Shown here piece by piece: positions 12,401 through 64,000 of a stretch of DNA of 64,000 bases. How positions within the stretch are numbered: the first letter of the stretch is position 1; the number at the start of each line of letters is the position of its first letter. The notes below the pieces were generated by a model. That model was given only the letters and a program-made list of their open reading frames with translations. It ran no database searches and was not told the origin of the DNA. The stretch spans positions 8,804,001-8,868,000 of the forward strand of contig NC_092673.1 in the NCBI RefSeq assembly GCF_964355755.1, written 5' to 3'. Source of the stretch: Antedon mediterranea (Eukaryota; Animalia; Echinodermata). The position numbers were made by a program, and so were the translations under genes.

Positions 12401-15400
12401 TTCACACGATAAAGTTAGTTATCAAATTTGGAGTAAAAATACAAGCGAAGGAAACTAGCGCCAGGTTTATTAGTACGTACATGGACAACAATAAATAAAA
12501 ATCGTTCGTAATATACCTAGCTTACTAAATCAGGAATAGTGTATCATTATTAAATATTACACCAATTATTATTTTATCAAAATTGATTAAATTATTTTCT
12601 ACATAGGCCTCTTATCTAGGTTAGGGCTAAGCATATTAGCTAAAGTTTAATTTTAGGCCTAGTATTACAATTGTCGGACGTAAGTCTTTTTTCACACGCG
12701 CTCCAGAATTCTGTCGCAATTTTTTTCTTTGCGGCATGTTATTGGATCGGCATATCAGTTACCTTTTATTCACCGCCAGTTATTGAACTTGTCCTAGCAA
12801 TCGCTGTTCACCTTATTTGCGAGAGAGGTACACGTGTTGTTCCTAGAGAATGGAATGTCAAAAATGTCTTTGGCACGCCGCTCAGAGAGAAGTCTGTGCG
12901 TTGCTGCATGCTGAAACCACGTGCTATAGGAGGGGAATGCACCACAATCCTCTGAGCTGAGGGCTGAATCATTCCGCTACCTGCTAAATAGTAAAGAGGG
13001 ATTGTCCATCTCTCGGGTCTACCGGATCTAGGCGCAGGGGTGTGGCAAAATATTATTTTCACTCTGCTATGTTCGAGAGACATGTGAGTGAACACGCTCG
13101 AAATGCCAACAAACATTGCAGTCATTTGATGAGTGTGTCGCTATAACATATATTATTGTTTATCGAAAGTTGAAGACTGTCGTTCAGATTTTTGAACCGT
13201 AGTTTGGGCACTTTTGTAAAAGTAAAATTTGACACGATATGACTTGAATGAAAAAACAATCGTTACATAAAAATAAACAACATGATGAGTGTATACACGA
13301 ATCTATTTAGATACGCTTGTACGTATCGATTGATTATTAGGCCTATAATATAGCATAATAGCCCGTTAAGATATGCCTCGCACCTTTTTGAAATTGTAAA
13401 CTATATGCCTCGCATGCCTCGCACTTTTAGAAATGATAAAATGATGCCTCGCACAAATATTTGGCATGCCTCGCGTGCCTCGCACTTTGTCAACACTCTA
13501 GCCTATTTACACTTACTTACAACTAATAAAAAATTTTTTTTTTTAAATATATATTTTCCGGGGACATTTTATGTAAGGAAATTTTACAATAGGCGGAGGT
13601 TTGTACTCTCGAAATACCGTCTAGTTTTGTTCATGTTATTGTTTTTTTTTTATTTTGTAACTTTTGTTACCATTATATCGGATAAGCGTATTATAAATAC
13701 TTTATTTACCTATGACTGTGTTACCTAGTACAGTAACTGTCATAACACAGGTTTGTACTCTCGAAATACCGTCTAGTTTTGTTCATGTTATTGTTTTTTT
13801 TTTATTTTGTAACTTTTGTTACCATTATATCGGATAAGCGTATTATAAATACTTTATTTACCTATGACTGTGTTACCTAGTACAGTAACTGTCATATCGC
13901 TAAATTCGCGGATGATACTACCATTGTAGGTCTAATCAATGATGACAGTGATGAGTCTAATTATCGCAACCAAGTTAAACGAGTTGTAGACTGGTGTAAT
14001 GAAAACAATCTGTTCTTGAATGTATCTAAGACTAAAGAAATGGTTGTTGACTTCCGTAAATCACTTAATGTCAAATATCCAATATTTATTAATGGTATAT
14101 CAGTTGAGTTTGTAGAAGAATTTAAATTCTTGGGTATTTATAATTCAAATGATCTGAAGTGGCATATTAACACACGTAACATTATTAGAAAGGCCCAAAG
14201 AAGAATCTACTTCCTACGTAGACTTAAATCGTTTGGTATAAAACTCTGAAATAATGTCGTCCTTCTGTAGGTCAGTTATAGAGAGTGTCATAACGTATTC
14301 TTTAACGGTATGGTTCGGTAGCACTACCGAAAATGAAAAGCGTGACCTAAATAGAATAGTAAAGACCGCACCGCATATAATTGGATCTGCACAATTGCCT
14401 TTAGAGAACATATTTTCGGATCGTCTTCTGAAAAAGGCAGTGGCTATCAAAGATGATCAATTTCATCCGGCCTCTAGTAGTGTTCCAGTTGATGCGCAGC
14501 GGTCGGCGATTTCGTTCTATTAAGGCCAATAAGGCACGATTTACAAATAGTTTCTTTCCAGGAGCTATCAGAGCCTTAAACATAATGTAGACACTTTTTT
14601 GTAATGTTTTTGTTTTTGAGTTCGTGTTGTGTCCGTTGGATATTGTGCTCCGCCGACAGAGCAAACAGAATTTCTATGTTTTTTCTTAAAACAAATGATA
14701 AATAAAAAAAGTTGACTTGACTTGTTCATTTTTAGCCTGGGTGCAGTACAAATTTTGCGGGAAAAAAGTATAGGAAAATTTTTTTCTTTTTTTTCTGATA
14801 GAGTATACAATATAGAATGTCAGAAAAAAAATCCCCATCCCAGGGTCTTGGGGAAAATTTTTTACGGCACTTTTAAATTTTGGCCTATATAACACACACA
14901 AATGCCTATATATAGTGGATAGGGAAAACCAATTCACGTTTTTTTTACTTGGAGTTGTGTTATGATGATTAAAATTTGCTGAGGCTTACTTTAATAACTA
15001 CTTCTCATAGTAGTTGATAAATCGAGTGGATAACAATGACATCATCATGCCAGAATCCAATATGGCGTCCAATTTGGCGGAAAAAACAGGGTATTGCTAA
15101 ACCCCCGCAAACCCTTGCAAACCTAAAAAAAACCATAGCAAACCCCACCGAACCAACATAAAAGAGATTGAATCATGTAGTGTACAACCCACTGGGTATA
15201 TCCATGTAAAAAAAAAATTAAATTTCTACTGTTAACTACTTATTTTTGGGGTAAAACATAATTTTTTGGTCAAAAATGATTGCTAAACCCTGCAAACCTC
15301 CAAAAAAACATAGCAAACCCCACCGAACCAACATAATAAAAGTGATTGAATCATGTAGTGTACGACCCACTGGGTATATCCATGTTAACAAAAATTGAAT

Positions 15401-27736: not shown

Positions 27737-28969
27737 CAAGTCAAGTCAAGTCAAGTATCATTTATTATCATTTGTTTTAGGAAAAACATAGAAATTCTGT
27801 TTGCTCTGTTGGCGGAGCACAATATCCAACGGACACAACACGAACTCAAAAAACAAGAACATTACAAAAAAAAGTCTACATCATATTTAAGGCTCTAATA
27901 GATCCTGGAAAGAAACTATTTGTAAATCGTGCCTTATTGGCCTTAATAGAACGAAATCGCCGACCGCTGCGCATCAACTGGAACATACTAGAGGCCGGAT
28001 GAAAATGATCATCTTTGATAGCCACTGCCTTTTTCAGAAGACGATCCGAAAATATGTTCTCCAAAGGCAGTTGTGTAGATCCAATTATACGCGATGCGGT
28101 CTTGACTATTCTATTTAGGTCACGCTTTTCATTTTCGGTAGCGCTACCGAACCATACCGTTAAAGAATACGTTATTACACTCTCTATAACTGACCTATAG
28201 AAGGACGACATTATTACAGAGTTTATACCAAATGATTTAAGTCTACGTAGGAAGTAGATTCTTCTTTGGGCCTTTCTAATAATGTTACGTGTGTTAATAT
28301 GCCACTTCAGATCATTTGAAATATAAATACCCAAGAATTTAAATTCTTCTACAAACTCAACTGATATACCATTAATAAATATTGGATATTTGACATTAAG
28401 TGATTTACGGAAATCAACAACCATTTCTTTAGTCTTAGATACATTCAAGAACAGATTGTTTTCGTTACACCAGTCTACAACTCGTTTAACTTGGTTGCGA
28501 TAATTAGACTCATCACTGTCATCATTGATTAGACCTACAATGGTAGTATCATCCGCAAATTTAGCGATGTGACAGTTACTGTAGTAGGTAACACAGTCAT
28601 AAGTAAATAAAGTAAAAAGAAAGGGCGACAGTACACAGCCCTGTGGTACACCTGTATTTATAATACGCTTATCTGATATAGTGGTACCCACTTTAGTACG
28701 TTGGGGTCGATCAGTTAAAAAGTTTAACACCCAGTTACATATAGAAATATCGAAACCGATTTCAACCATCTTAGTGTGTAACTTATACGGTACAATCGTA
28801 TTAAATGCTGAACTAAAATCTATATATAAAATCCTAGCATATCTTTTATCACGTTCGAGATGCTCTAAGATCCTATGCAAAGTGATCAATACAGCATCTT
28901 CGGTAGACCGGTTTGGTCTATAGGCGAACTGATATTGGTCAAGATCTCGAGGACACTTGGCCTTTAGGT
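27737..28969 (-). mobile_element. 5'-truncated Rex1/Babar LINE with an open RT C-terminal half (ORF 27876-28889)
   Basis: YARILYIDFSSAFNTI, TGVPQGCVLSPFLFTLFTYDC, KFADDTTIVGL; tail (GACTT)n at 27737-27756. Confidence 0.93.
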
Positions 28970-29088
28970 AATTAATTAATTATATTCACTATAATATCTC
29001 TATGGTCTAGTCTAGTAGAAAAAATTCCAAAAATATCAGAAGTTTGCTTTCCGTACACTATATTAAAGTATCATAACATACATATAAC

Positions 29089-32090: not shown

Positions 32091-32267
32091 TATATATATA
32101 TATATATATGTATATGTGTGTGTTTATATGTATGTATGTTACAACTGACTAACTTTATCAATTGATTCATAGTTATACATAAAGAGACTCTGTTTTGAGC
32201 AGTTTAAAATTACATTTTACGCTTAAGCACGTTACTTACTATACCTCAATTTTTCTAAACTCTTAAT

Positions 32268-35200
32268 TTGTATTTGTTCTGTGTTTTGTCTGTGTTTTTT
32301 GTGTTTTTGTCTTATATGGAAGCACCAACTTTCAGTAACAATGATAATTTAAATCGATTATCAAACCATCTATTTAAACCCTCATCAACTGCTAGTCAAT
32401 TTGACGACATCGACCCGGACAATAATTTTTTTAATGATCAAAATATTTCTAATTACTATTTACCAAATGAATTCACAAAGAAATTCAATAACAATGAATT
32501 TGAAAATCGTTTCTCTTGTATACATTTTAATGCTAGAAGCTTACAAAAAAACTTTGAATCTATTTCAAGTTGCATTCAATCTCTTAATTTTGACTTTGAT
32601 GTCATTTCGGTAACTGAAACTTGGATGGACTGTGTTAGTCCACTTATTCATTTACCATTTTATTCACTAGTTTTCAAACCCCGTTCATATAAATGCGGAG
32701 GTATCAATATTTTTATCAATAATAAGTGTCATTATAAAATTAGAGATGACTTAACTCCTTTAACCTATTTTTGTGAATCTCAGTTTATTGAAGTTAAAAC
32801 CGGAAAAGAAGATATAATAATCGGAACTATATATAGACCCCATGATATTTCTATTCCTTTCTTTACGCAGAACTTTGAACTCCTTATTAAAAACTTAACG
32901 AAAGAAAATAAAAAAATATTTATCCTCGGTGATTTTAACATTGACTTACTCAAATTTGAATCTGATAACAATATTAATGATTTTGTTCATTGTCTTTTCA
33001 ACAATTCTCTCATTTCGCTTATTCATAGACCGACACGCATCACCGAACATTCCGCTACCCTAATTGACAACATTTTCACTAATGATCTTGAATCGTCTGT
33101 TAGTGGTATCATTATTAATGATGCTACAGATCATCTTCCTGTTTTTAACATCAGTTCAAATAAACCGAGTAAGCGAGTAATCAATACCAATCTTAAATTT
33201 AGAAATACTAGTGAACACAATATCCTTAATTTTCGTAATGATTTATCAATTTTTCCATGGAATGATGTCGTGAGTACGCAAGACACAAATCTGGCATATG
33301 ACACATTTATTAATAATTTTACCACCTTATATAATAAACACTTTCCTTTAATTGAACCATCCAAAGCTAAAGTTAAACTTAAACCATGGATGACCGATGG
33401 ACTTTTGACCTCGATTTTGTACAAACAGAAACTTTATTCTAAAAGTCTACGCCATCCAACACTTTCTAATATATCCAAATATAAGCGTTATCGAAATAAA
33501 TTAAACAACGTTTTAAAAACTGCTAAATTGGATTACTTTTGTGAAACTTTTACTAAGCTTAAGTTCAATATCAAGGCCACCTGGCGTGTCATCAATTCTC
33601 TTCTTAAGTCAAATAAAAATGCACCTGCCGATATTGAACTTTTAGCTGATGGAAAATTAATAAAAGAACCTTTAATAGTAGCAAATCTATTCAATGACCA
33701 CTTTACAAATATTGGACCCAACCTTGCTGGAAAAATAAACAATAACTCTGATAAAACTTTTCATCACTTCTTACATCCCCCTATTCCTAACTCAATTTTT
33801 CTTTCACCTGTAACCGAACAAGAAGTGCACAAAATCACAAATTCATTTAAAAGCAACAAGGCCTCTGGCATCGATGACATTTGTGCTAAAGTTATTAAAA
33901 AATCCATTGACACTATTCTCTCTCCTCTCACTTACATTTTTAATTTATCTCTTACATCTGGTGTTTTTCCCAACTCCCTAAAAATTGGTAAAGTTATTCC
34001 AATTTTCAAGAAAGGTAGCAAGTCCGATCCAAATAACTATCGTCCAATCTCCATCCTTCCCTTTTTTTCAAAGATTCTTGAAAAGATTATTTATAACCGC
34101 GTCTATGATTTTATAAGCAAGCACAATATTCTTTATAATAAACAATTCGGATTTAGGAAAAACTATTCTACGTCTTTTGCGCTAATTGATTTAACCAACA
34201 ACATTATTGATGCAATTCAAAACAATTCTTTTCCCTCTGGCTTGTTTATTGACCTGTCGAAAGCTTTTGATACTATTGACCATCATATTCTGATTACTAA
34301 ACTTTCAAATTATGGTATCCGTGGTGTTGCTCTTAAACTTTTAAACAATTACTTATCAAATAGATTTCAATGTACTTCTGTTAACAATCATACCTCTGAT
34401 CTTAAGCCCATTACCTGTGGTGTTCCCCAAGGGTCCTTGCTTGGCCCTCTTTTATTTCTAATTTACATCAATGATTTACCAAACGCCTCAGATATCCTTA
34501 CCTTTTATCTTTATGCAGATGACACGACTTTATTTTTTAAAAGTGTTAACTTTCAATCAATTTTTCATACTTTTAACCAAGAATTAATTAATATTAACGA
34601 TTATTTTAATGTGAATAAACTTTCAATAAACCTAAGTAAATGCAACTTTATGTTGTTTGGAATACGTCATCAAAAACTGACCGACGAGTCTCATAAAATT
34701 CTGATTGGTGATCAAGTAATTCCCCATGTTAAGCAAACCAAATTTCTAGGTGTTTTAATTGACCAAGAGCTAAATTTTAAAAATCATATAAAAGAAATTG
34801 AATTAAAAATTTCTAAAAACATTGGCATACTTTATCGTCTGTCTTCCTTTTTACCGTCTCAAATTTTACGCAATATTTACTGTTCCTTTATTCTGCCTTT
34901 TATTAGTTACTGTAACATTGTATGGGCCAATAATTACCCTTCAAATCTTAATAAAATACACGTCATTCAAAAGAAAGCTGTTCGTCTTATCTCGGGTAAC
35001 TCACGTCTTGCTCATCCTTTTTTATAACCTTAAACTCTTAACTGTGCACGATATTAATAAACTCCAACAATGCATTTTCGTTTATGAACATATTAATTCC
35101 AAACTGCCTTCTAACTTTTCCTGTAATTTTTTAACTAACTCTGAAATCCATTCGTATAACACAAGAGCATCACGGGACCTTCATCTTCCTCAACCTAAAC

Positions 35201-35337
35201 TAACTAAAATGAAACATAACATTCGCTATAGTGGTTCTAAACTATTCAATAATCTACTTCCCGAAATTTCATCATCGTCTTCTAGCAAAATGTTCTCTTT
35301 TAAACTTAAAGAATATCTTATTTCAAATTATAACTAA
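32268..35337 (+). pseudogene. LINE ORF2 (APE endonuclease + reverse transcriptase), frameshift near 35020
   Basis: HFNARSL, VTETW, IYRP, ILGDFNIDLL, TLIDNIF, TDHLPVF; NYRPISIL, FIDLSKAFDT, GVPQGSLLGPLLFLIYINDL, YADDT; C-terminus continues in frame 34822-35337. Confidence 0.93.
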
Positions 35338-36619: not shown

Positions 36620-37162
36620 CTAATTTTTAGTAAAATAAAAGTGGCCGCGGCCGTTTACCAAATGCACTAATTAGATAGGATGAACAAACGGGCATACTTC
36701 GCGCTCTTCGATAAAAACTTTTCCCCTCGTGACCTGCCGTCATAATTTAAACGCCTGTGATTGGTCAATACCCAACAAACGAGTCGTCCCGTCGGGTGAA
36801 AATTAACGACCTAAAACTACCCCCGACGCTATCTCACGACGACCCGTCTCGTCTGGATTCAACTCAGACAGCACGGACGAGTCAAGTCCAGACAAGACGT
36901 CTCGTCGGGCCTCGTCGTACGACGCTGTCTGAGTCTGAGTTGGCCTTCAAGCTTGGTTCTCACTAGAACGTAACGCAATGACGTAAACGCAACGCAAGCG
37001 TTTTAACCAATGACAAGCGAAGTTATAGACAGTTAGCAATCACAAGCGAATAATTTATCGCTTGTGATTGGTCAATTCATTTGCGTTGCGTTACGTCCTT
37101 GCGTTGCGTCGCTAGTAGGAACCAAGCTTTAGGGAGGTGGCCGCTTAGGGAGGTGGCTGCTC
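36620..37162. mobile_element. Nested MITE cluster: Tc1/pogo-like MITE right half interrupted by Harbinger-like palindromic MITEs (one at 36949-37129)
   Basis: 36620-36705 and 37131-37162 match the 52540-53090 element; AAGCTTGGTTC..GAACCAAGCTT palindrome between them. Confidence 0.65.
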
Positions 37163-37793
37163 ACGGAGGTTCATCAACTGTATGTACATTCTGAACAAAT
37201 CTTTGAAAAAATCAACTCTAGCATTAGCGGTTTTTGAGATATGGCAACTCTGTCATTTCATTCAATAAATCGCAAGTCACAAGTTATTTAACAGATGTTC
37301 AATTTATTCATTTATCATTTATTCAGAAATATAAATATTTACATTGTAAACATGGATTTTACAGAGACAATTAAAATTGTCTGCAGGGTTTGATTTTTAT
37401 ATTTATTTTGTGTGTGTGTTACCGCTGCGTCGGTCCTGTTTTTGGTACCATGAAATATGAAATTAATAAAAAAAAATTAAAAAAATTGTCTGTAGTCGTA
37501 AAACCCTTTAGAAAAGACAAATATTATCACAAACAAAAAAAAACTTGAAGAAAATGGTTTTATAGGTAGGCCTACAAGTTGGAAAAAAAATTTGCATATT
37601 TAACTAATTATTTGCATGTCTTCGGGATGAATGCCAGAGGTGTGATCTCCTCATCATATTATATGACTATTTAAAAAAGAAAAATATCTGTTTTGATTTT
37701 GTTTCACTCAAAATGCTAGATTGCCTAGCCTAAATTGACGGTAACTAGTTTTAATATTATTATTTACTTTTTTTATTCAAAAAGGTCAATAAG

Positions 37794-40697
37794 ATGGATA
37801 GCAGAATGCTAAATTTCGTTAAAGGATATGCTGAATCGTTTAAGCGAAGTTATAATACGCGCGTTTTAGCAGATGATACTGAAGTTAAAGAAGCTTACAA
37901 AACAGCACAAGAAACAGGAAAACTGCCTTTTAAGAGAAGCAAGATTCTCATCCTGGGTGATCATGGTGCCGGGAAAACTTCGACATGCAGGCGTTTACAG
38001 GGTAAAAATTTTCGACCAGAGGAGCCTAGTACAATAGGAATAGAAACAAATACTGTTAAGGCAAACGTTAGTGATGTTAATAGTAAATGGTCTGAAGTTA
38101 CCAACACACCAGTAGAAGATTATGAAAGTTCAGCAGCCTGGTGGACAGTATTACATGTGCTCAAACATAATAAAAATAAAGATTTCAAGAAAAGTATTAC
38201 GTCTGAAAAAAATGCAGAAGTGTCGATTCGAAAAGTAATCGAGGATACATTTTACCTTATTTTGTGTATTTTTCCTATGATGATTATGCTCTGTTTCGGT
38301 GGGTTTATATTCGGGTTCGGTCCATTCGTATGGTTATACATCCTTTGTCTTATGACAATATGTGATGTTCACAGTGCTTATCGCTTTGGTTGTGGATATG
38401 CTATTTGTATGGTACTCGTAGATAGTGCTACACAATTGAATGAACAGAGCATTGAGATAAACTTATGGATGTTTGTGTCTGCCTTTATGATTGTTGGTAT
38501 GTATGGGTTAGGTTCGTTCTTTGTTGGTGCGCTTATTGCCGCAGGTTGCAGAACTGGTATCTGTGTAGGTTTTTGCCTCATGGTACATCCAAAGCATACC
38601 TCTATTTCTTTTGAAATTATTTTAGAAAATGTTTCTAAGCTTTTTTCCAGTAGTAGAGAATATTTTGAAATCTTTATCTACGCGGTTATAATATTGGTCA
38701 TGTTTAGAAGCATTTACACTAAACTATTTCTAATAAAACGTAGATTTATTATTGTGTTCATACTTATCATAATATTTATATCCGCAGCTAAATATTTCGA
38801 AAGACATAGTTTTGGTGACATATGTACTCTATTTTGCTTAATTTCCATTGTTTTTTCAATATTGATTGGGACTATATTAGGACGACAATTTGTGGCTTTT
38901 GGATATTTACCTGAAAATTACTTTTTAAAGAAATCTGTTGGATTTATAACTGGAATATGTTTAACAAAAATATGTGGTTGGAAAATGTTAAATGTCAACA
39001 ATCTTGTGTTATTAGACAACACACGTTCTCTTACAAGGTATTTATTTCAATTATTTTCATTTTTTGCACCAATCACTGCGTTTGTTATCTACGAATGTTG
39101 TTCATATATAAAAGTAATAAAAACTACGTCATCGATACCAATAATGCATATCAGAAAAGCAATGAAAGCAGATATACGAAAAAAATGCTACATCGATGCC
39201 AGATTCAGTTTATGGGATTTTGCCGGCCAAGAAATGTATTATAATACACATCATCTATTTATGCCAAAGCAAGGTGTATACTTGGTTGTTTTCAACGCTG
39301 CCAAAGCAATTTCTGATCCTTATAGACATATTAAGCGGCTACAGTTCTGGTTACAATCTATTGCTATGCATGCAGATATTGAAAATGTCGTAGTATTTCT
39401 TGTAGGTACAAGGCGAGAAAGTATATGTGATACAAACGTGTTTTCAGCTTTTGAGAAATTGTTAAATGCACATATTTACAAAAGGTTTTCAAGATTGCTT
39501 GCCTTTCATCCAAAAGGTGGACTTTGTTTTTTTATTGAAAACGCTCTTAGTGATGATAAAGAGTGTAACCTATTACGAGAAATTATATACAAGGAGGTGC
39601 AACTTCTAAAGTACTTCTGTGAAACATTTTCTGTTAAATATCTTTTATTTAAAGAAATACTAAACGGACTACGCTGTAGAAATTGTGTTATTGCAAGTAT
39701 AAACGATATCGAAAATGAAATAATTTCAAAAATCAATGTATTTAAAAAATATGATTTGCGTAAAATTCTGAATTGCTTTGACAAATCTGGAGATATCATA
39801 TACAACGAACACGATGAATGGCTTCGGAACTATATTGTGTGTGATCCACAAGTACTAATAGACATTCTGAAATTACTAGTAAATGTGCCAGAACCACATC
39901 AAAGAAATCGAACTGTATCGGATCTTTGGCAGAGATTGCTGGAAACCGGAATTATTGACAGTAGATTAGTGGAACATATTTGTCGAATGAAAGGAATTTG
40001 GAGAGTTTATCCTTATGTGATTCGTTTTTTGGTTGAAACACATCTACTTTTTCCACTTACAATTACTAACGAAATTGATCAAGTTGGGACATTTTACCTT
40101 TGCAGCCGATTGCCGGAAACTGAGTTACAAACTAGTAAATGTATCTGTGTTATAGACTTGTACGAAATATTTTATTTTGACTTTGGTGAAATTTTACTTG
40201 AATATATCTTTCTTCGTCTTATTGCCAAGTGTTGCAAGATGTTTAATTGGATTAATATCTACTATAATGCTGCAAAATTTAGAGCAAGTGAATCATGTCT
40301 CTTTCAGATAAACACGGAAACAATTTCTGCTGGCAGCATTTTCTTTTATGATAGAAATCTCATCAAACTTTCAGTTACTAAAGTAGACCCGAATCAATCT
40401 GTAAATATTCTACACAAAATTACTACTTTCATAGAAGAAATTGTTCAACAGACTTTCAGTCCTGATTACGTTCATGAGCAGTTTGTTTGTGGTCCAGTGT
40501 GTGAAAGATGTAGTTCTTTAGATGGCACATTGTGTTTGGTGAACATCGTTACTATTATTAAGGACGTCTCCGCAATTGACGAATATAGAACAGATGATTA
40601 CCACACGATTTCGTTGAAATCAAAGGTAACCACATTACTCACCCGGTTCCAAGTACTGTATCTAGATTTCTCCAGTATGTATCATAGAAATATTTGA
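37794..40697 (+). CDS. ROCO-family Roc-COR GTPase with a multi-pass transmembrane insertion inside the Roc domain
   Basis: G1 GDHGAGKT (aa55-62), G2 STIGI (aa79-83), G3 WDFAGQEMYYNTHHLF (aa474 on), G4 LVGTRRE, G5 FFIEN, COR-like YIVCDPQVLIDILKLL; aa153-438 strongly hydrophobic; uninterrupted 967-codon ORF; in-frame acceptor at 37784 and donor at 40626 suggest extra exons. Confidence 0.9.
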   Translation: MDSRMLNFVKGYAESFKRSYNTRVLADDTEVKEAYKTAQETGKLPFKRSKILILGDHGAGKTSTCRRLQGKNFRPEEPSTIGIETNTVKANVSDVNSKWSEVTNTPVEDYESSAAWWTVLHVLKHNKNKDFKKSITSEKNAEVSIRKVIEDTFYLILCIFPMMIMLCFGGFIFGFGPFVWLYILCLMTICDVHSAYRFGCGYAICMVLVDSATQLNEQSIEINLWMFVSAFMIVGMYGLGSFFVGALIAAGCRTGICVGFCLMVHPKHTSISFEIILENVSKLFSSSREYFEIFIYAVIILVMFRSIYTKLFLIKRRFIIVFILIIIFISAAKYFERHSFGDICTLFCLISIVFSILIGTILGRQFVAFGYLPENYFLKKSVGFITGICLTKICGWKMLNVNNLVLLDNTRSLTRYLFQLFSFFAPITAFVIYECCSYIKVIKTTSSIPIMHIRKAMKADIRKKCYIDARFSLWDFAGQEMYYNTHHLFMPKQGVYLVVFNAAKAISDPYRHIKRLQFWLQSIAMHADIENVVVFLVGTRRESICDTNVFSAFEKLLNAHIYKRFSRLLAFHPKGGLCFFIENALSDDKECNLLREIIYKEVQLLKYFCETFSVKYLLFKEILNGLRCRNCVIASINDIENEIISKINVFKKYDLRKILNCFDKSGDIIYNEHDEWLRNYIVCDPQVLIDILKLLVNVPEPHQRNRTVSDLWQRLLETGIIDSRLVEHICRMKGIWRVYPYVIRFLVETHLLFPLTITNEIDQVGTFYLCSRLPETELQTSKCICVIDLYEIFYFDFGEILLEYIFLRLIAKCCKMFNWINIYYNAAKFRASESCLFQINTETISAGSIFFYDRNLIKLSVTKVDPNQSVNILHKITTFIEEIVQQTFSPDYVHEQFVCGPVCERCSSLDGTLCLVNIVTIIKDVSAIDEYRTDDYHTISLKSKVTTLLTRFQVLYLDFSSMYHRNI

Positions 40698-40979
40698 TAA
40701 TACGCATCTGTGTTTCACATGTATCTCCTAGTATAAAACACCATAACCTAACCTTTAACCTAACCTCACATTATACAGCCACCACATGTGATACAAATGA
40801 GACACTGTATTACCAAATACTGGGCACATGTAATAGTATGTGGAGATATAGCACTGGAGATCGAGTATATTACTGATATTGTACGCAAGGAGTGAAATCC
40901 GATAAAATAACTAGGAGGGAAGTTTTGAAGTTTATAATTGATATGCGTTAAAAATGTATTTATTTTACTCTTCTTACAG

Positions 40980-41069
40980 TTTAATCTTGTATGCAATAGA
41001 CCAATGAACAATGATGATGATAATCAAATTGGAGTGGAATTTGGCGATAAAGAAGTATTGATTGATTGA
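40980..41069 (+). CDS. Possible short terminal exon of the ROCO gene (FNLVCNRPMNNDDDNQIGVEFGDKEVLID*)
   Basis: Phase-0 donor AAG|GTAACC at 40625/6 and strong acceptor TTTTACTCTTCTTACAG at 40979; open for 29 codons. Confidence 0.4.
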   Translation, partial: FNLVCNRPMNNDDDNQIGVEFGDKEVLID

Positions 41070-43894: not shown

Positions 43895-45506
43895 TTAAAA
43901 TACATCGAAAAGTAAAGTGATCTTTAATTAAATGTATAATTCGATAGAGAATGTTCATATAGGCGATCACCCGGGGTCACGGTACAGTAGTCTTTAATAT
44001 AATTTGCTTAATTTCTTTATATCTGTCATTTACATGATAAAACTTTCATAACAGTATTGATTTTAAAAGATATGTTGTTTTTTTTATTTTTGTGCTATAG
44101 ATATGCATATTGCAATGTAATGCTATAGAGTTTTAATCTAAGAATCAACTTTATATCACATTTAGGTCACCAATCACCAAAACGTCCAGTAAGAAATTAA
44201 TCAGATTTTCATGACTATTAGGATCAATTAGATCTATTCCTGTATATTCGTGTGTATATTCGTGTGTATACCCCTGTATATTATCTGGTGATAGTATTAT
44301 TAAGCACGAATATGAATAAAGAACTCTGATATTGCGACCAAGTGAGTCTAAAACCTTCGCACATTATATTACAACATTTTGTTTATGTTTTGCATGTTTT
44401 TATCAAATCCAAAAAAACGAGTTTGCTATGTTGGATTACAAATACCGAATATGCTACAGTTATGTATATTCGCACTGTAATGGATCGGAAAGCTTCCGAA
44501 GTTTCTTATATCTACATTATTGGTGGCGCAATATATTGCATTGCATTGCTATTGTTCACTACTGGTATTCGCGGGCGTATTTGCATATCAGGTGAATGAC
44601 TATATTGAATAGGCTGCGTGAGCGTTGCTTCTGCAGAAGTTGTTTTAGTTGTTGTAAGACATGTTATATACTGTATTTTTTTTAATTGTGGATTCTCGCC
44701 AATACTGTGAGTAGATATTTTCTATACAACCATAATGTTTTACAGTATTACTATATGTGCGTAACGACAATGAATTCACTGTTTAATAATTTCTGTTTGA
44801 TATACAGCTTTGTCTTATTAGATAGCATACATGTTGAAGTTAGTTGTATAACATACCATGTTGAAGTTAATTGGATAACTTACCAGGTTGACGTGATTAG
44901 TAGTATGAAATTGGTGTATTGGATCCAGGTACAAGTTCGTTCAATGTGAGCAATACTAATTGATAATTAGTGAAGTGACCATATTGTAGTAAGCTTGCTT
45001 GTGATTGTTTTTATTGTTGAATTATATTACACTGCTGATACATAATAATTATGACGTTGTTTTATACAGGGTTTGTTCCTGTTTAGAAAAATAAACGATA
45101 CAGAGTAAATACAGCCTCATCTTGCGTATTGTTTTGTTGCATGGGATACATGGCTTCACAAACCAAACCTTAATGGTCTAAACCTAGCAAATCAATATTA
45201 AGGATTCCCGAACCACGACAGCACCTTATAATACGACACTCTTTGAATTGATACAAAGCGTCTATATTCTGTTTTTATTACAAGGGGTTTTTAATTGGGG
45301 GAAACGGAAAGAAGATACAATCAATAACCCAACGTATGTGAATCTATACCGGAACAGTAGACCTAACCTTATATTGAAGTATAAGAAGAACATACGATCA
45401 TTTAGGGCTGTAGACCCATTTGTACCGCTGATAGTGTAGTACGCCGCTTCTGTTGACGAAACACAAAAGATATACTGTGCACAAATAGTTTTAAGTATTG
45501 AATGAC

Positions 45507-47053
45507 ATGGAATTTGTTTGGCGTAGAGCTTTCATAGCTTCCTTGCTCCTATTTATCAAGTTTGTTACTGGTCAAGTTTTAGACGAGGATATTCGATGTA
45601 TAACAAGCAAGATCACAAAAATTGCAGAAACATATAATCGTTACTTCAACGACGGCCCTGAACAAATCTCAGTTCTTGCTGTCTTGCCTGAGGAAGACAC
45701 ACCTTTCTGGTGCAACAATACCTACTTGGAAAGAACATTTAAGTCTTCTGTGAACACATTAGGGTTTGTAGTTCCCGAAAACTTAAATTATGCGGTGCCA
45801 AGTTTAGCTTCTGATGTTTTTAATTACATATCAGCTATTCCTTATGTCGACAATGACATTGTTCAATCAGACCTAAAACTGTTACTGAAGTTTCCAGAGA
45901 GGATCAAGGCAATGGTAGATTGGTATCATTTAGATGAAACCGCAAAAGCACCTGTGTTTTTCTTATACACCTGGAAATACCCATGTATTAGTTGCACTGA
46001 TATGATTTTGGACGTTCTTAATACTGAAATATACCAAACAATTCCTCTCATAATAACATTCACCGACTGGGGCCATACAGACCCGGATGTAAATATCATA
46101 GAAAGTGAGAATAGGTTGGAGGTAGCTGCCATCCAAAGACCTCTATCTGCAACAATTACACGTATGAGGTACGAATACACAACAGATGCAAGTTATTATT
46201 TTGATTTGTTTCAGCACGTTATATTTGATAAATTTTACCGTACGGGTGTGCCTCGACAACAAGGTGATCAGATACAGTTTGCCGTTTTAACCATTTTGCC
46301 ATTGCATGATAAAGAGAAGTGGTCAACTCCTGACTACGCCGAAGAAGTACTGCGGCCACTGACGGCACGAGGTCGCGTGTTAACGCTACAAGTAAACGAT
46401 CGTCTAGCTCCATCAGAAATCAGCGAAAGTGACAATTTTGTAGTCGCACGCGGAGTAACTGAAAACACTGATACTGCTCAGACATATGCACTCCGTGGTG
46501 AAAGTACAGACGGAAATAACATAGCGTTACTTCTTAATAACCATGAACGCATACATGGATTGGAGACACCAACTGTTATTGCTCTTTATTCGTGGACTTG
46601 TTTCCATGATGATGTCACTTTACAAGAATCAGCAACAATACTTGAACTGTATGTACGACAACCAGACATATACAGGGTCATTTATGGTTGTTCTTCAGAA
46701 ATATCTGGCGATGATTTTGAAACAACACGATCAACGTTTGACAATATTGATGTAAAAGCGTTTTTTGTACGAGAAACGTTTCCTGAAGACGTTATTCAAC
46801 CTGTAAACGAACCCCCGTTTGAAGATCATGAATCCGCCGCTGATATGCGCCCGTTACCGCCAGGAGGCGATCAAAGAATATGTCGGGTTAAAAGAGCACT
46901 TGATGAAAATCTTCAGTACAACTCTTTCCAGAATTGTGCGTTCCAATGTTTGGTGAATGAATATGAGTGCGGCAGATTTTGCTGCTGTTGTGGAAACAAC
47001 CTGATTACAGAAACTACAGCGTACTTGGTTAACAGCATAACATCTGATTGCAG
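45507..47053 (+). CDS. Secreted tandem AID/APOBEC(SNAD)-like deaminase-fold protein, paralog 1 (large first coding exon)
   Basis: Signal peptide MEFVWRRAFIASLLLFIKFVTG; QISVLAVLP..NYISAIP..QSDLKLL..FFLYTWKYPCISC; second repeat QFAVLTILP..NFVVARG..IALYSWTC; RVKR; Cys-rich tail; ORF stop lies inside donor AG|GTAAGT. The coding call is firm (paralog conservation), the fold call moderate. Confidence 0.8.
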
Positions 47054-48269
47054 GTAAGTAACAGTTCAGACTATACTTATTAACTTATTATACCACCGCA
47101 AAGTTCTAGAAATCCCTAGAATTTAACGGTTGCCCATTGTCCGAGTGGACGGTGACGGAAACACCATGTCGTGCGAAAATGTCTATTAATGCAATTTATA
47201 AATACTGTAGGCCATCATTGTTCTCTCTAAACGATCAATGACATAGAAATGAACCATATAGAGCTTACAATGTTTCGGATTGTTTACTCTTAGTCTTCAT
47301 TTGATTGTCCTGCATGCCCTTTAATACAGTGTCGACTTTAGTTATTGGTTTGGAGGCACCAGGTTTTTATTATTAACATTGTACGAGGTATCACAGTCTA
47401 TCTAAAATGTTATATTTATATTTTCACTTGTACTCTTAACCTCCTTATAATTACTCTTAACAACGTTATTTATTGTATGTTCAGTGACCATTATTAGTTA
47501 GACATTCCTCATATTCGGAACTGTGGACACATCTTCGTCCGTTTCTTTAGCTTTTTTACACTATTTTTTAATTTCCTTCTACTGTAGGTTTACGACTTGT
47601 AGGCAGAGTATCTCTTTTATCAGTAATACGGCACTTCACAGTAGTTTAAAATGGACATCTGGGCCACATTTCGGCTCATAGCATGAAGACGGGCAATGTT
47701 TACGACCACATTTATTCGTTTTACCAGTCGATAGACCTACCCATATACCCATTATTGCATAGCATTAATGTTTAATTTTACAACAGTACTAGGTTTGGTC
47801 TAAGGTTCATATGTCTTCACAAGGTTTATACAGGAATTTATTGTTAGTTTTGGCTCCTGCAACTATTCCTTCAGGATATCCTCATCTCGTAGTCCACAAA
47901 CTATTTTATCCAGCATACTCTCATCTTTGAGACTTCCGAACTTACCATTTTTGCTTTCGTAGACGAATTAGGGAACATGCAAAGTCTTCACCTTCCTGTT
48001 CAGATTCTCTATATGGAATTGAGAATTGGTACCTTTTATATTGGTTTTTCAACATCAGTAGGATTTTCGAGCTTGTATAAACTTGCATCGTTAGCGATGG
48101 AAAACACCTTTGTAATTCGATAAAGGATTCTGGTGGTGAGAGGATGCTGCATTACCCATACGGGGAATGCAACCTCTGACCTACTGATTTTGATTTTGGA
48201 AGTGAATTTTGGCATAGTGTATGTACTCACATATTTTGGTCATGTATGTGGCATCGTTGTTTAGACTAA

Positions 48270-61592: not shown

Positions 61593-62053
61593 GATTTTAT
61601 GTATGACTCATGTGAACAAAGTGATTGGTCAAACTTGATGATATCACATTGCAGACTTATTTATTTTGTTTACTGGGGCTAGTGATCTAGGAGTGGATCT
61701 GCTGTATACGACTGGAAATCAATATTTGTTACATACAGATAAATTTTATATTATTTGAACGCTTTCAACGACCTTCATACATAAGAAAATTATGACAACA
61801 ATAACAATGTTCAAACCTCGTGGTGTATCAACTTTGTCATTCGTTTCTGGTTTTCTGATAACTATTCCAATTGAGGAAAGGTGGGTATTAGATAATGAAT
61901 TGCCAGCGGTTGTTATGAAGCCAGACCGGAACAATAATTAACGATACATAGTAAAGGTCATTTTCTAGGTTAGTTTCGGTCAGTTGTTACTAGATCACAG
62001 TTGATATAATTTACCTGGGTAATAACTGCTGTGTACCTTTGTTATATCAAAAT

Positions 62054-63627
62054 ATGTTCAAGATGAACATTGTGATTTTATTGATTGACATTTTATTTAT
62101 TTTTGTAATAATACCTGTACATTTTGTATCTGGAGAAGTGACTGATGATGAAATACGATGCTTAACTAAGCTACTTACTGATTTTACCCCTTTTATAAAC
62201 GATCATCTTCAAGACTATCTATATGACTACGCTGACACCGATTCGGAACGAATATCAGTTCTTGCGGTATTGCCATTGGAAGACACTCCTTTCTGGTGTA
62301 ATAATACTTACCTGGAAAGAACATTTAGATCTTCTACAAATGAATTAGGGTTTGTAGTTCCTGATGAGTTGAATTATGCGGTACCAAGTTTAGCTTCAGA
62401 CGTTTTTAATTACATATCAGCTATTCCTTATGTCGAGAATGACATCGTTCAATCGGATCTAAAACTGCTTTTGAAGTTTCCAGAGAGGATCCAGGCAATG
62501 GTAGATTGGCATCATTTAGATGAAATAAACGTAACAGCACATGTATTTTTCTTATACACCTGGAAATATCCATGTAGTAGTTGCACCGATATGATTTTGG
62601 ACGTTCTTAATATTGAAAGGTACCAAACAGCTCCTCTCATAATATCATTCACCGACTGGGGACATGAAGACCCGGATATAAATACCATGGAAAGTGAGAA
62701 TACGTTTAATGTAGCTGCCATCCAAAGACCCTCATTTGCACCAATTATCCGTTTTAGATACGAGTACAAAACAGATGCAAGTTATTATTTTGATTTATTT
62801 CACAATGTGATATTCGATAAATTCTACCGTACGGGTGTGCCTCGTCAGCAAGGTGAGCAAATTCGATTTGCCGTCCTCATGATCTTGCCATTACATGATA
62901 AAGACATGTGGTTAACTCCAGACTACGCTGAAAATGTGCTGCGGCCCCTTACGGCAAGAGGTCGCGTGTTGACACCTGTGTTAAACGAACTCATTGCTCC
63001 TTCACAAATTAGTGAAAGCGATAACTTTATTGTTGCCCGTGGTGAAGCTGCTCAGTCATATGCACTTCGTGGTGAAAATACAGACGGAAATAACATAGCG
63101 TTACTTCTTAATAACCATGAACGCATACATGGATTGGAGACACCAACTGTTATTGCTCTTTATTCGTGGACTTGTTTCCATGATAATGTCATTTTACAAG
63201 AATCAGCAACAATACTTGAACTGTATGTACGACAACCAGACATATACAGGGTAATTTATGGTTGCTCATCAGAAATTTCTGACGATGATTTTGAAACAAC
63301 GCAATCAACGCTTGGTGATATTGATGTAAAAGCGTTTCTTGTACGGGAAAAGTTTCCTCAAGACGTTATTCAACCTGTAAACGAACCGCCGTTTGAAGAT
63401 CATGAATCCGCCGCTGATATGCGCCCGTTACCACCAGGGGGAGATCAAAGAATATGTCGGGTTAGAAGAGCACTTGATGAAAATCTTCAGTACAGCTCTT
63501 TTCAGAATTGTGCGTTCCAGTGTTTGGTGAATGAATACGAGTGCGGCAGATTCTGTTGCTGCTGTAAAAGTAACTTTATTACGGAAACCACGTCGTATTT
63601 AGTTAACAATATCGTATCTGATTGCAG
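62054..63627 (+). CDS. Secreted tandem AID/APOBEC(SNAD)-like deaminase-fold protein, paralog 2 (first coding exon; gene probably continues beyond the window)
   Basis: Signal peptide MFKMNIVILLIDILFIFVIIPVHFVSG; collinear with paralog 1; QSDLKLL (62450), LYTWKYPCSSC, RVRR, CCCC; ends at the same AG|GTAAGT donor. Confidence 0.8.
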
Positions 63628-64000
63628 GTAAGTTATCTACACAACAGTCACCATTGAATGGCAATCACACAATTTGCACCCTGTTTTCTACATTCAACAT
63701 CTTCAAACAAAAACCGTGAAATGTGCAAAAAGTCACATTTGTGCAAACATGATACCCATAAATGTGGAAATCTGTAAGAAAACAATCCATAAAATTCAAT
63801 GACACAAATAGTATGTGTAACATATTTATATGAGCTTTAGTTTTATCAAATACTAAAAATACATTGCGATGTTCGACATTTTCTGCATCTCCGGATATCA
63901 TTGTGGTTTTTTGTTGTAACAAAACGGATAATTTCAGCCTGTATTACTATTTAAATACGTAATTGGCTATATTGAAAACATTATGTTAGAAAAAACCGTG

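Follow-up and report, generated by a model that had tools for sequence, protein, structure and literature searches.

An apparently undescribed ROCO subfamily with a predicted membrane domain inside its GTPase domain

The locus and its gene model

The window analysed here is a 64-kb stretch of the genome of the crinoid Antedon mediterranea. An open reading frame (ORF) on its forward strand, at 37794-40697, gives a stop-free translation of 967 residues and encodes a protein of the ROCO family, in which a predicted membrane domain appears to interrupt the Roc GTPase domain. The P-loop GDHGAGKT (residue 55, nt 37956) and the switch I sequence STIGI (residue 79, nt 38028) are followed by the G3 motif WDFAGQ at residue 474 (nt 39213). 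The distance from switch I to G3 is therefore 395 residues within a single stop-free frame, in agreement with the separation of about 390 residues on which a preliminary description of this DNA was based. The parts of the gene, all on the forward strand, are as follows, with transmembrane (TM) helices placed inside Roc (TM-in-Roc).

37794-40625 (+): main coding exon of the TM-in-Roc ROCO gene, residues 1-944 (open frame)
37794-37928 (+): short N-terminus, residues 1-45, with an alpha0-like helix (model helices 3-15 and 29-41) and no leucine-rich repeat (LRR) or ankyrin sensor
37929-38069 (+): N-terminal half of Roc, residues 46-92, with beta1, P-loop GDHGAGKTS, alpha1, switch I Thr80 and beta2 (motifs, model and LRRK2 profile alignment)
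38121-38204 (+): soluble stalk helix leaving the G domain, residues 110-137 (model)
38226-39131 (+): predicted ten-pass bundle, residues 145-446 (insert-only model, charge bias and conservation)
39141-39176 (+): return helix into the G domain, residues 450-461 (model)
39198-39608 (+): C-terminal half of Roc, residues 469-605, with beta3, G3 WDFAGQ, switch II, G4 GTRRE, G5 ENA and alpha5 (Pfam Roc at 463-540; superposition)
39609-40118 (+): COR-A, about residues 606-775 (alignment to Methanosarcina barkeri Roco2 RocCOR-deltaC)
40119-40625 (+): COR-B, about residues 776-944, with a Cys-containing tail and no Death, TIR or caspase domain (alignments to LRRK1, LRRK2 and Chlorobium tepidum Roco, CtRoco)
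40626-40979 (+): intron of 354 nt, GT..AG (joint skipping 354 bases in run X1; splice check)
40980-41069 (+): last coding exon, 29 residues and stop (encodes the final 29 residues of XP_071949114.1)

The end of the gene had been misplaced at 40697, a position that falls inside the intron; the coding sequence really ends at 41069 after splicing from 40625 to 40980, and the full protein has 973 residues. Residues 398-944 are identical to the closest database protein, the A. mediterranea RefSeq entry XP_071949114.1, which continues past residue 944 with 29 different residues encoded at 40980-41069. A contig joined across the 354-nt intron is present in run X1 and absent in run X4, hence X1 is probably RNA. 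Contigs from X1 are also unbroken over 38008-38545, from switch I into the third helix, and over 38876-39266, from the late helices into G3. They thus bridge both ends of the insert without an internal joint, so that the insert is kept in spliced contigs, and its removal by splicing was rejected, as no joint lies within 38.1-39.1 kb in the runs compared. Runs X2 and X3 contain contigs that agree with 37955-39266, or a longer stretch, at every base; X4 represents a second allele with nine substitutions in the ORF (six residue-changing, three silent), no stop and no gap. The Antedon paralogs are annotated at full length, insert included, and ten of them are clustered on a different chromosome-size contig from that carrying this locus.

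Upstream of the start codon, a pyrimidine-rich tract at 37760-37785 ends in AG nine bases before the ATG. From its sequence this is likely to be the 3' splice site of an intron in the 5' untranslated region; no joint was seen there in the runs compared.

The modelled G domain, its insert and COR

Pfam Roc matches the protein in two stretches (E = 2.4e-20). G55, G60, K61, T62, S63 and T80 are invariant across 34 aligned rows, and a G4-like GTRRE at residues 538-542 and a G5-like ENA follow the insert. A full-length AlphaFold model was built from 34 sequences (pLDDT 74.5, pTM 0.68). Within its residues 45-615, Rab33 superposes over 171 of 173 residues at 2.7 Å and LRRK2 Roc over 185 of 194 at 2.6 Å; whole Rab and Roc domains in general superpose on this part of the predicted model at 2.4-3.0 Å. 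In the model, both halves of Roc rejoin into one Ras-like G domain on one side of the membrane, the packing that the preliminary description had proposed. Profile alignment locates the interruption precisely. Positions 43-85 of the family profile align to residues 4-48 of an LRRK2 construct and positions 461-699 to residues 53-287; because these blocks flank only four LRRK2 residues, about 375 profile positions stand in place of the turn from beta2 to beta3, which lies between the two switches. Nucleotide-binding motifs are retained across the family: all 93 TM members have G1 GK[TS] and DxxG, and 84 have the switch I Thr pattern.

The COR region is less readily recognised from sequence. Pfam COR-A is weak in the Antedon protein (E = 0.034, under the cut-off) and above the cut-off in several relatives. 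By fold, however, COR is present in the model directly after Roc, which bears out the COR-like region described earlier. Alignments to LRRK1, LRRK2, CtRoco and Roco2 extend through it: RocCOR-deltaC of M. barkeri Roco2 aligns over 316 of 323 residues at 3.4 Å onto model residues 31-773, and those to LRRK1, LRRK2 and CtRoco reach about residue 940. G900 and C903 are invariant in the COR-B tail.

Between residues 155 and 435, a Kyte-Doolittle scan with a threshold of 1.4 finds seven hydrophobic segments, and the insert modelled alone from 77 rows (pLDDT 89.7, pTM 0.88) has ten long or membrane-length helices; roughly eight to ten segments had originally been counted. Assuming ten passes with both ends inside, and with boundaries set by hand from the model and hydropathy, mean charge is +6.4 for the four inner loops and -1.9 for the five outer ones, and 76 of 77 rows show this excess of positive charge inside. 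On hydropathy, the structural model and this charge bias, ten passes with both ends of the insert cytosolic are predicted. The even number of passes that had been considered necessary is consistent with this positive-inside alternation, and the ten-helix prediction likewise supports an integral-membrane ROCO. The bundle holds GxxxG motifs, and conserved R197, R253, R364 and K379 lie on its predicted cytosolic face; D210, P266, W396 and E434 are also conserved. Among 25 crinoid rows, TM2, 3, 5, 9 and 10 form a conserved core with 51-72% identity, as against 27-39% for TM1, 4, 6, 7 and 8, and identity is 35% in the outer loops, 58% in the inner loops and 70-80% in the Roc halves.

No relative of the bundle was found among known families or structures. 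The insert matches no Pfam family at E 5, and its best match to sequences of the PDB by profile has E = 3.9. Foldseek against the PDB gave a best E of 0.5 and no fold match, FeoB and GPCR folds included; the best of 48,161 chains in VIA reached Z 6.3 at 7.1 Å, which is background level; BFVD held no fold match; and the ESM Atlas returned no usable match for the Antedon protein or a starfish relative. As modelled, the fold is unmatched among solved structures, which does not in itself prove it new. A ten-sequence profile run against 7993 word-limited candidates of 120-527 residues found, in place of any stand-alone insert, one truncated Antedon paralog that includes Roc, and no internal repeat was detected within the insert (probability 0.3). 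Chance hydrophobicity of AT-rich DNA is ruled out as an origin of the helices by their conservation across phyla.

Relatives of the protein and the remainder of the window

A first search gave 81 proteins, including 11 clusters from Antedon, 17 from Anneissia, 9 from starfish (Patiria with 6) and 2 from Amphiura. A profile search of 1.84 billion representatives had 15,213 matches, of which the best 150 were taken, and 194 of the 227 proteins collected were mappable at both G1 and G3. Where the gap between these motifs is at least 350 residues, 90 of 94 proteins have four or more hydrophobic segments. Where it is 130-239 residues, 80 of 81 have none and one has two; 15 proteins with shorter gaps have none, and four are intermediate. 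The expectation that switch I and switch II lie a few tens of residues apart therefore holds for LRRK2, but not for the 81 of 194 mapped relatives with a soluble gap of 130-239 residues. Set beside the hydrophobic long gaps, these soluble gaps mark the beta2-beta3 site as an insertion hotspot in this group of ROCO proteins, of which the membrane bundle is a distinct state.

As the preliminary description had envisaged, relatives with the same insertion occur in other invertebrates, in this case echinoderms, hemichordates, amphioxus and sponges. Carriers named, from 5 of 10 and 4 of 10 clusters in two sets, are Ptychodera, Glandiceps, Amphiura, Anneissia, Branchiostoma and the homoscleromorph sponges Corticium and Oscarella; no named vertebrate, mollusc or arthropod carrier is found among the best-scoring matches listed. 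The inserts of crinoids, starfish and mixed deuterostomes are homologous (hhalign probability 99.6-99.8%), as is that of amphioxus (108 bits, against -18 when reversed). Homology is weak for the Corticium insert (20 bits, against -18 reversed), and the Oscarella insert does not score against the insert profile (-16 bits).

A search with one further family member gave 294 matches of coral type; the 5 named among the 120 listed are stony corals (Oculina, Orbicella and Pocillopora), and the gap is 330-460 residues in 125 of 132 candidates. The coral insert resembles that of deuterostomes in length and hydrophobic pattern, but homology between the two was undetected (probabilities of 0.05-1.7, against 0.08-2.7 for reversed controls). 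The coral clade (P0163, P0231-P0346) contains very many near-paralogous or allelic clusters with this unrelated-looking insert, and is a candidate polymorphic recognition family.

Roc-COR trees were made from 45 of 168 rows and from 90 rows, 21 redundant crinoid and starfish rows having been dropped earlier. With the insert excluded, all 21 TM rows fall in one clade together with two soluble rows (support 97/99), divided into sponge, coral and deuterostome subgroups. TM rows thus group with a few soluble rows, and a single origin of the TM-in-Roc layout may hold but is not shown by these sequences.

The models and alignments together indicate that this ROCO subfamily, with its predicted membrane domain inside the GTPase domain, is real; it is apparently undescribed and extends from sponges to lancelets. 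The earlier statement that no protein with this layout has been characterised stands: none was found described in the literature, although subscription papers and supplements (e.g. the source data to Figure 6 of Kaur 2021) could list such proteins. The portions available of PMC11378527, PMC8195603, PMC9334734, PMC6337361 and PMC13001434 describe no membrane helices within Roc. None of the three contrary outcomes envisaged at the outset arose, namely an insert that is spliced out, a sequence in which no bundle is predicted or a subfamily already known.

Elsewhere in the window, two paralogous single-frame ORFs on the forward strand, at 45495-47057 (+) and 61994-63631 (+), of 520 and 545 residues stop to stop, are 86% identical over 1407 nt of DNA. 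Both have a hydrophobic, signal-peptide-like N-terminus, an internal two-fold repeat visible by eye and a Cys-rich end, and neither matches a Pfam family; from sequence they may represent a duplicated, possibly secreted protein. Mobile elements are represented by a LINE-type endonuclease and reverse transcriptase ORF of 922 residues with a frame change near its end (32259-35337, +), by a second reverse transcriptase fragment (27876-28979, -), of which an inverted copy with 96% identity lies at 13850-14724, and by a very high-copy, short element resembling a miniature inverted-repeat transposable element at 36935-37130. This last element contains a 35-nt inverted repeat (36986-37020 / 37058-37092) and precedes the start codon by about 700 nt. 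Tandem repeats occupy 1-400, at the window start (16-nt units), and 1175-1687, an array reading as a QYTP-repeat frame.

Possible function and comparison with known systems

LRRK2 is the Parkinson's protein, and that field has still to settle how the Roc nucleotide cycle is triggered and linked to COR dimerisation. TM-in-Roc proteins, which have no LRRs or kinase, place the likely input inside Roc itself, so that the coupling can be tested directly. In addition, they provide a confidently modelled membrane domain without a solved relative, and constitute a large unannotated family of candidate receptors in corals, sponges and echinoderms, animals in which immune recognition is poorly known.

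The architecture of the family points to what that input may be. More than 150 residues precede the P-loop in only one of 93 TM members, compared with 54 of 95 soluble relatives; the Antedon protein has 54, with no LRR in Pfam. At the other end, local profiles built on Pfam-called members find C-terminal tails in 26 of 93 TM members (Death in 22, TIR in three, caspase in one), and three further TM members have weak TIR matches. The caspase tail is in P0101 and the TIR tails are in P0105, P0180 and P0209; P0103 appears to contain two ROCO units. In Roc-COR conflict proteins, an LRR sensor precedes the GTPase-COR unit and a variable effector follows it (Kaur et al. 2021, PMC8195603, in the text available). 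With the LRR slot empty and the effector slot filled, the bundle is the likely sensor. Of the 'sensor or pore' first suggested, the sensor is thus favoured by family architecture and the pore less so. The position of the bundle would also suit this role, because it is attached to the hairpin linking both switches. In Arf and G-alpha proteins, nucleotide exchange is linked to membranes or receptors through this hairpin. The expansions to 11 clusters in Antedon, 17 in Anneissia and 6 in Patiria, and the 294 coral-type matches, are further support for reading the ten-pass ROCO as a membrane receptor, made of a single chain, that responds to immune or damage signals; this reading is given about an even chance of being correct.

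Under such a receptor model, the bundle would bind a ligand, or feel a change in the membrane, from the outer or luminal side, and its two stalk helices would transmit a pull to the hairpin that joins the switches, altering the nucleotide state. Switch II would then pass the change to COR and alter the dimer state; in CtRoco, switch II is reported to contact COR and relay the nucleotide state to the dimer, according to the available part of Wauters 2019. In most lineages the dimer change would cluster or free the C-terminal Death, TIR or caspase domain, while tail-less crinoid copies, the present one included, would have to signal through a partner bound to Roc-COR, in the manner of tail-less sensor paralogs.

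Several observations weigh against this interpretation. None of the 25 crinoid members (three truncated), the Antedon protein included, and none of the 16 members of the coral clade (five truncated) has an effector tail, which leaves the output unexplained precisely in the groups with the largest expansions. Just 39 of 93 TM members retain the G4 Asp, which is Glu in the Antedon protein (TRRE), so guanine specificity may be relaxed; Roc domains are known to vary in G4-G5, as noted in the part of Wauters 2019 available. The lower identity of the outer loops, another point in favour of a receptor, is weak evidence, as such loops change quickly in most membrane proteins. RNA support comes from one run, X1, whose RNA type is guessed, no run matching the locus being recorded as RNA; its contigs leave 38546-38875 uncovered, a gap informative neither way. 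The RefSeq model of the locus starts at M398 and so omits the P-loop and the greater part of the insert.

The lack of tails gives some weight to an unlikely but serious alternative, in which the bundle is itself the effector and the tails are inputs or side outputs. It would be a channel, transporter or pore gated by the GTPase, in the manner of Tmn or FeoB, and would open on a change in the Roc-COR oligomer. Some output is required in the crinoid and coral members that have no tail; the core helices TM2, 3, 5, 9 and 10 are Gly-rich, TM5 is short and the polar D210 and E434 are kept; and the helices inside the P-loop domain of Tmn form an NTP-driven, Mg2+-exporting decamer (PMC13001434, in the portion available). 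The same assignment, however, leaves tail-less proteins without an evident sensor. Identity of just 27-39% in TM1, 4, 6, 7 and 8 among crinoid paralogs, and an unrelated-looking coral bundle in the same slot, would be unusual for a fixed conduction path.

It is less probable still that the bundle mainly anchors or scaffolds a Roc-COR switch on an organelle, for trafficking, tethering or lipid sensing, and acts neither as a receptor nor in immunity. The acceptance of unrelated soluble inserts at this site in 81 of 194 relatives fits this reading, anionic lipids could be bound by the conserved basic residues of the predicted cytosolic face, and LRRK2 cycles at membranes (Wauters 2019, part available). 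One or two helices would nevertheless suffice for an anchor, and ten, with a core conserved from sponge to echinoderm, imply more, while the Death, TIR and caspase tails and the repeated expansions point to defence. Finally, expression of this locus solely as the truncated RefSeq form or as a decaying duplicate, such that the full architecture is not made here, would fit the start of XP_071949114.1 at M398 and a position near LINE remnants, away from the ten clustered paralogs, but is improbable given the open frame with all G motifs, the coverage of 38008-38545 and 38876-39266 by the same run that contains the spliced joint, the second allele with nine ORF substitutions and no gap or stop, and the paralogs annotated in full with the insert; the conclusion about the family is in any case independent of this copy.

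Returning to the receptor interpretation, its broadest form can be put forward only tentatively. The family would comprise ancient animal single-chain receptor-GTPases, with a ten-pass sensor of new fold in the Roc interswitch hairpin, swappable Death, TIR or caspase outputs coupled through COR, and a sensor module that was exchanged for an unrelated one in stony corals. If true, they would parallel NLRs at the membrane, with an origin as old as sponges and expansions in corals and echinoderms.

A small-GTPase-type switch is coupled to a multi-pass membrane domain in FeoB and in pairs of G protein-coupled receptors (GPCRs) and G proteins. The G domain of FeoB is whole and N-terminal, and GPCR and G-alpha are separate chains. 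The proteins most similar in fold to that of Antedon are LRRK2 (Z 28.4; 456 residues at 4.7 Å), LRRK1 (Z 26.9) and Roco2 (Z 26.1). With the known ROCO proteins (LRRK1, LRRK2, DAPK1, MFHAS1, C. tepidum Roco and M. barkeri Roco2) it has in common alpha0, G1-G3 and tandem COR-A and COR-B; it differs in its predicted ten-pass domain of about 300 residues inside Roc and in having no LRR, ankyrin or kinase domain. Many of its relatives carry a C-terminal Death domain, as does DAPK1 in the account of Wauters 2019, in the available text of which the word 'transmembrane' does not occur.

The AP-GTPase conflict proteins of Kaur et al. 2021 (PMC8195603, as far as available) likewise join a GTPase to COR, have a C-terminal effector slot of variable content (TIR, caspase or Death-type) and show lineage-specific expansion, and the sections available on brown-algal and Aplysia ROCO immune candidates (PMC11378527, PMC9334734) describe the same plan of GTPase-COR and effector slot. 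Compared with the plan of Kaur 2021, the Antedon protein has neither the N-terminal LRR sensor nor the variable C-terminal effector. Conflict-type ROCOs, as portrayed in these sources, carry their LRR sensors at the N-terminus and lack a membrane domain within Roc; inserts in brown-algal Roc are noted there as non-conserved sequence, whereas the Antedon-type insert is conserved, hydrophobic and, as modelled, folded. The closest precedent for the layout is Tmn, a bacterial ATPase with two inserted helices. In the YobI-family Tmn/KAP P-loop ATPases, of which Tmn is defensive (PMC13001434, available portion), membrane helices lie within the P-loop domain, by analogy between Walker A and B. Tmn is an ATPase without COR whose two inserted helices contribute to a decameric pore; the Antedon protein, in place of a KAP/YobI-type ATPase domain, has a Ras-like Roc GTPase followed by COR, and ten predicted helices.

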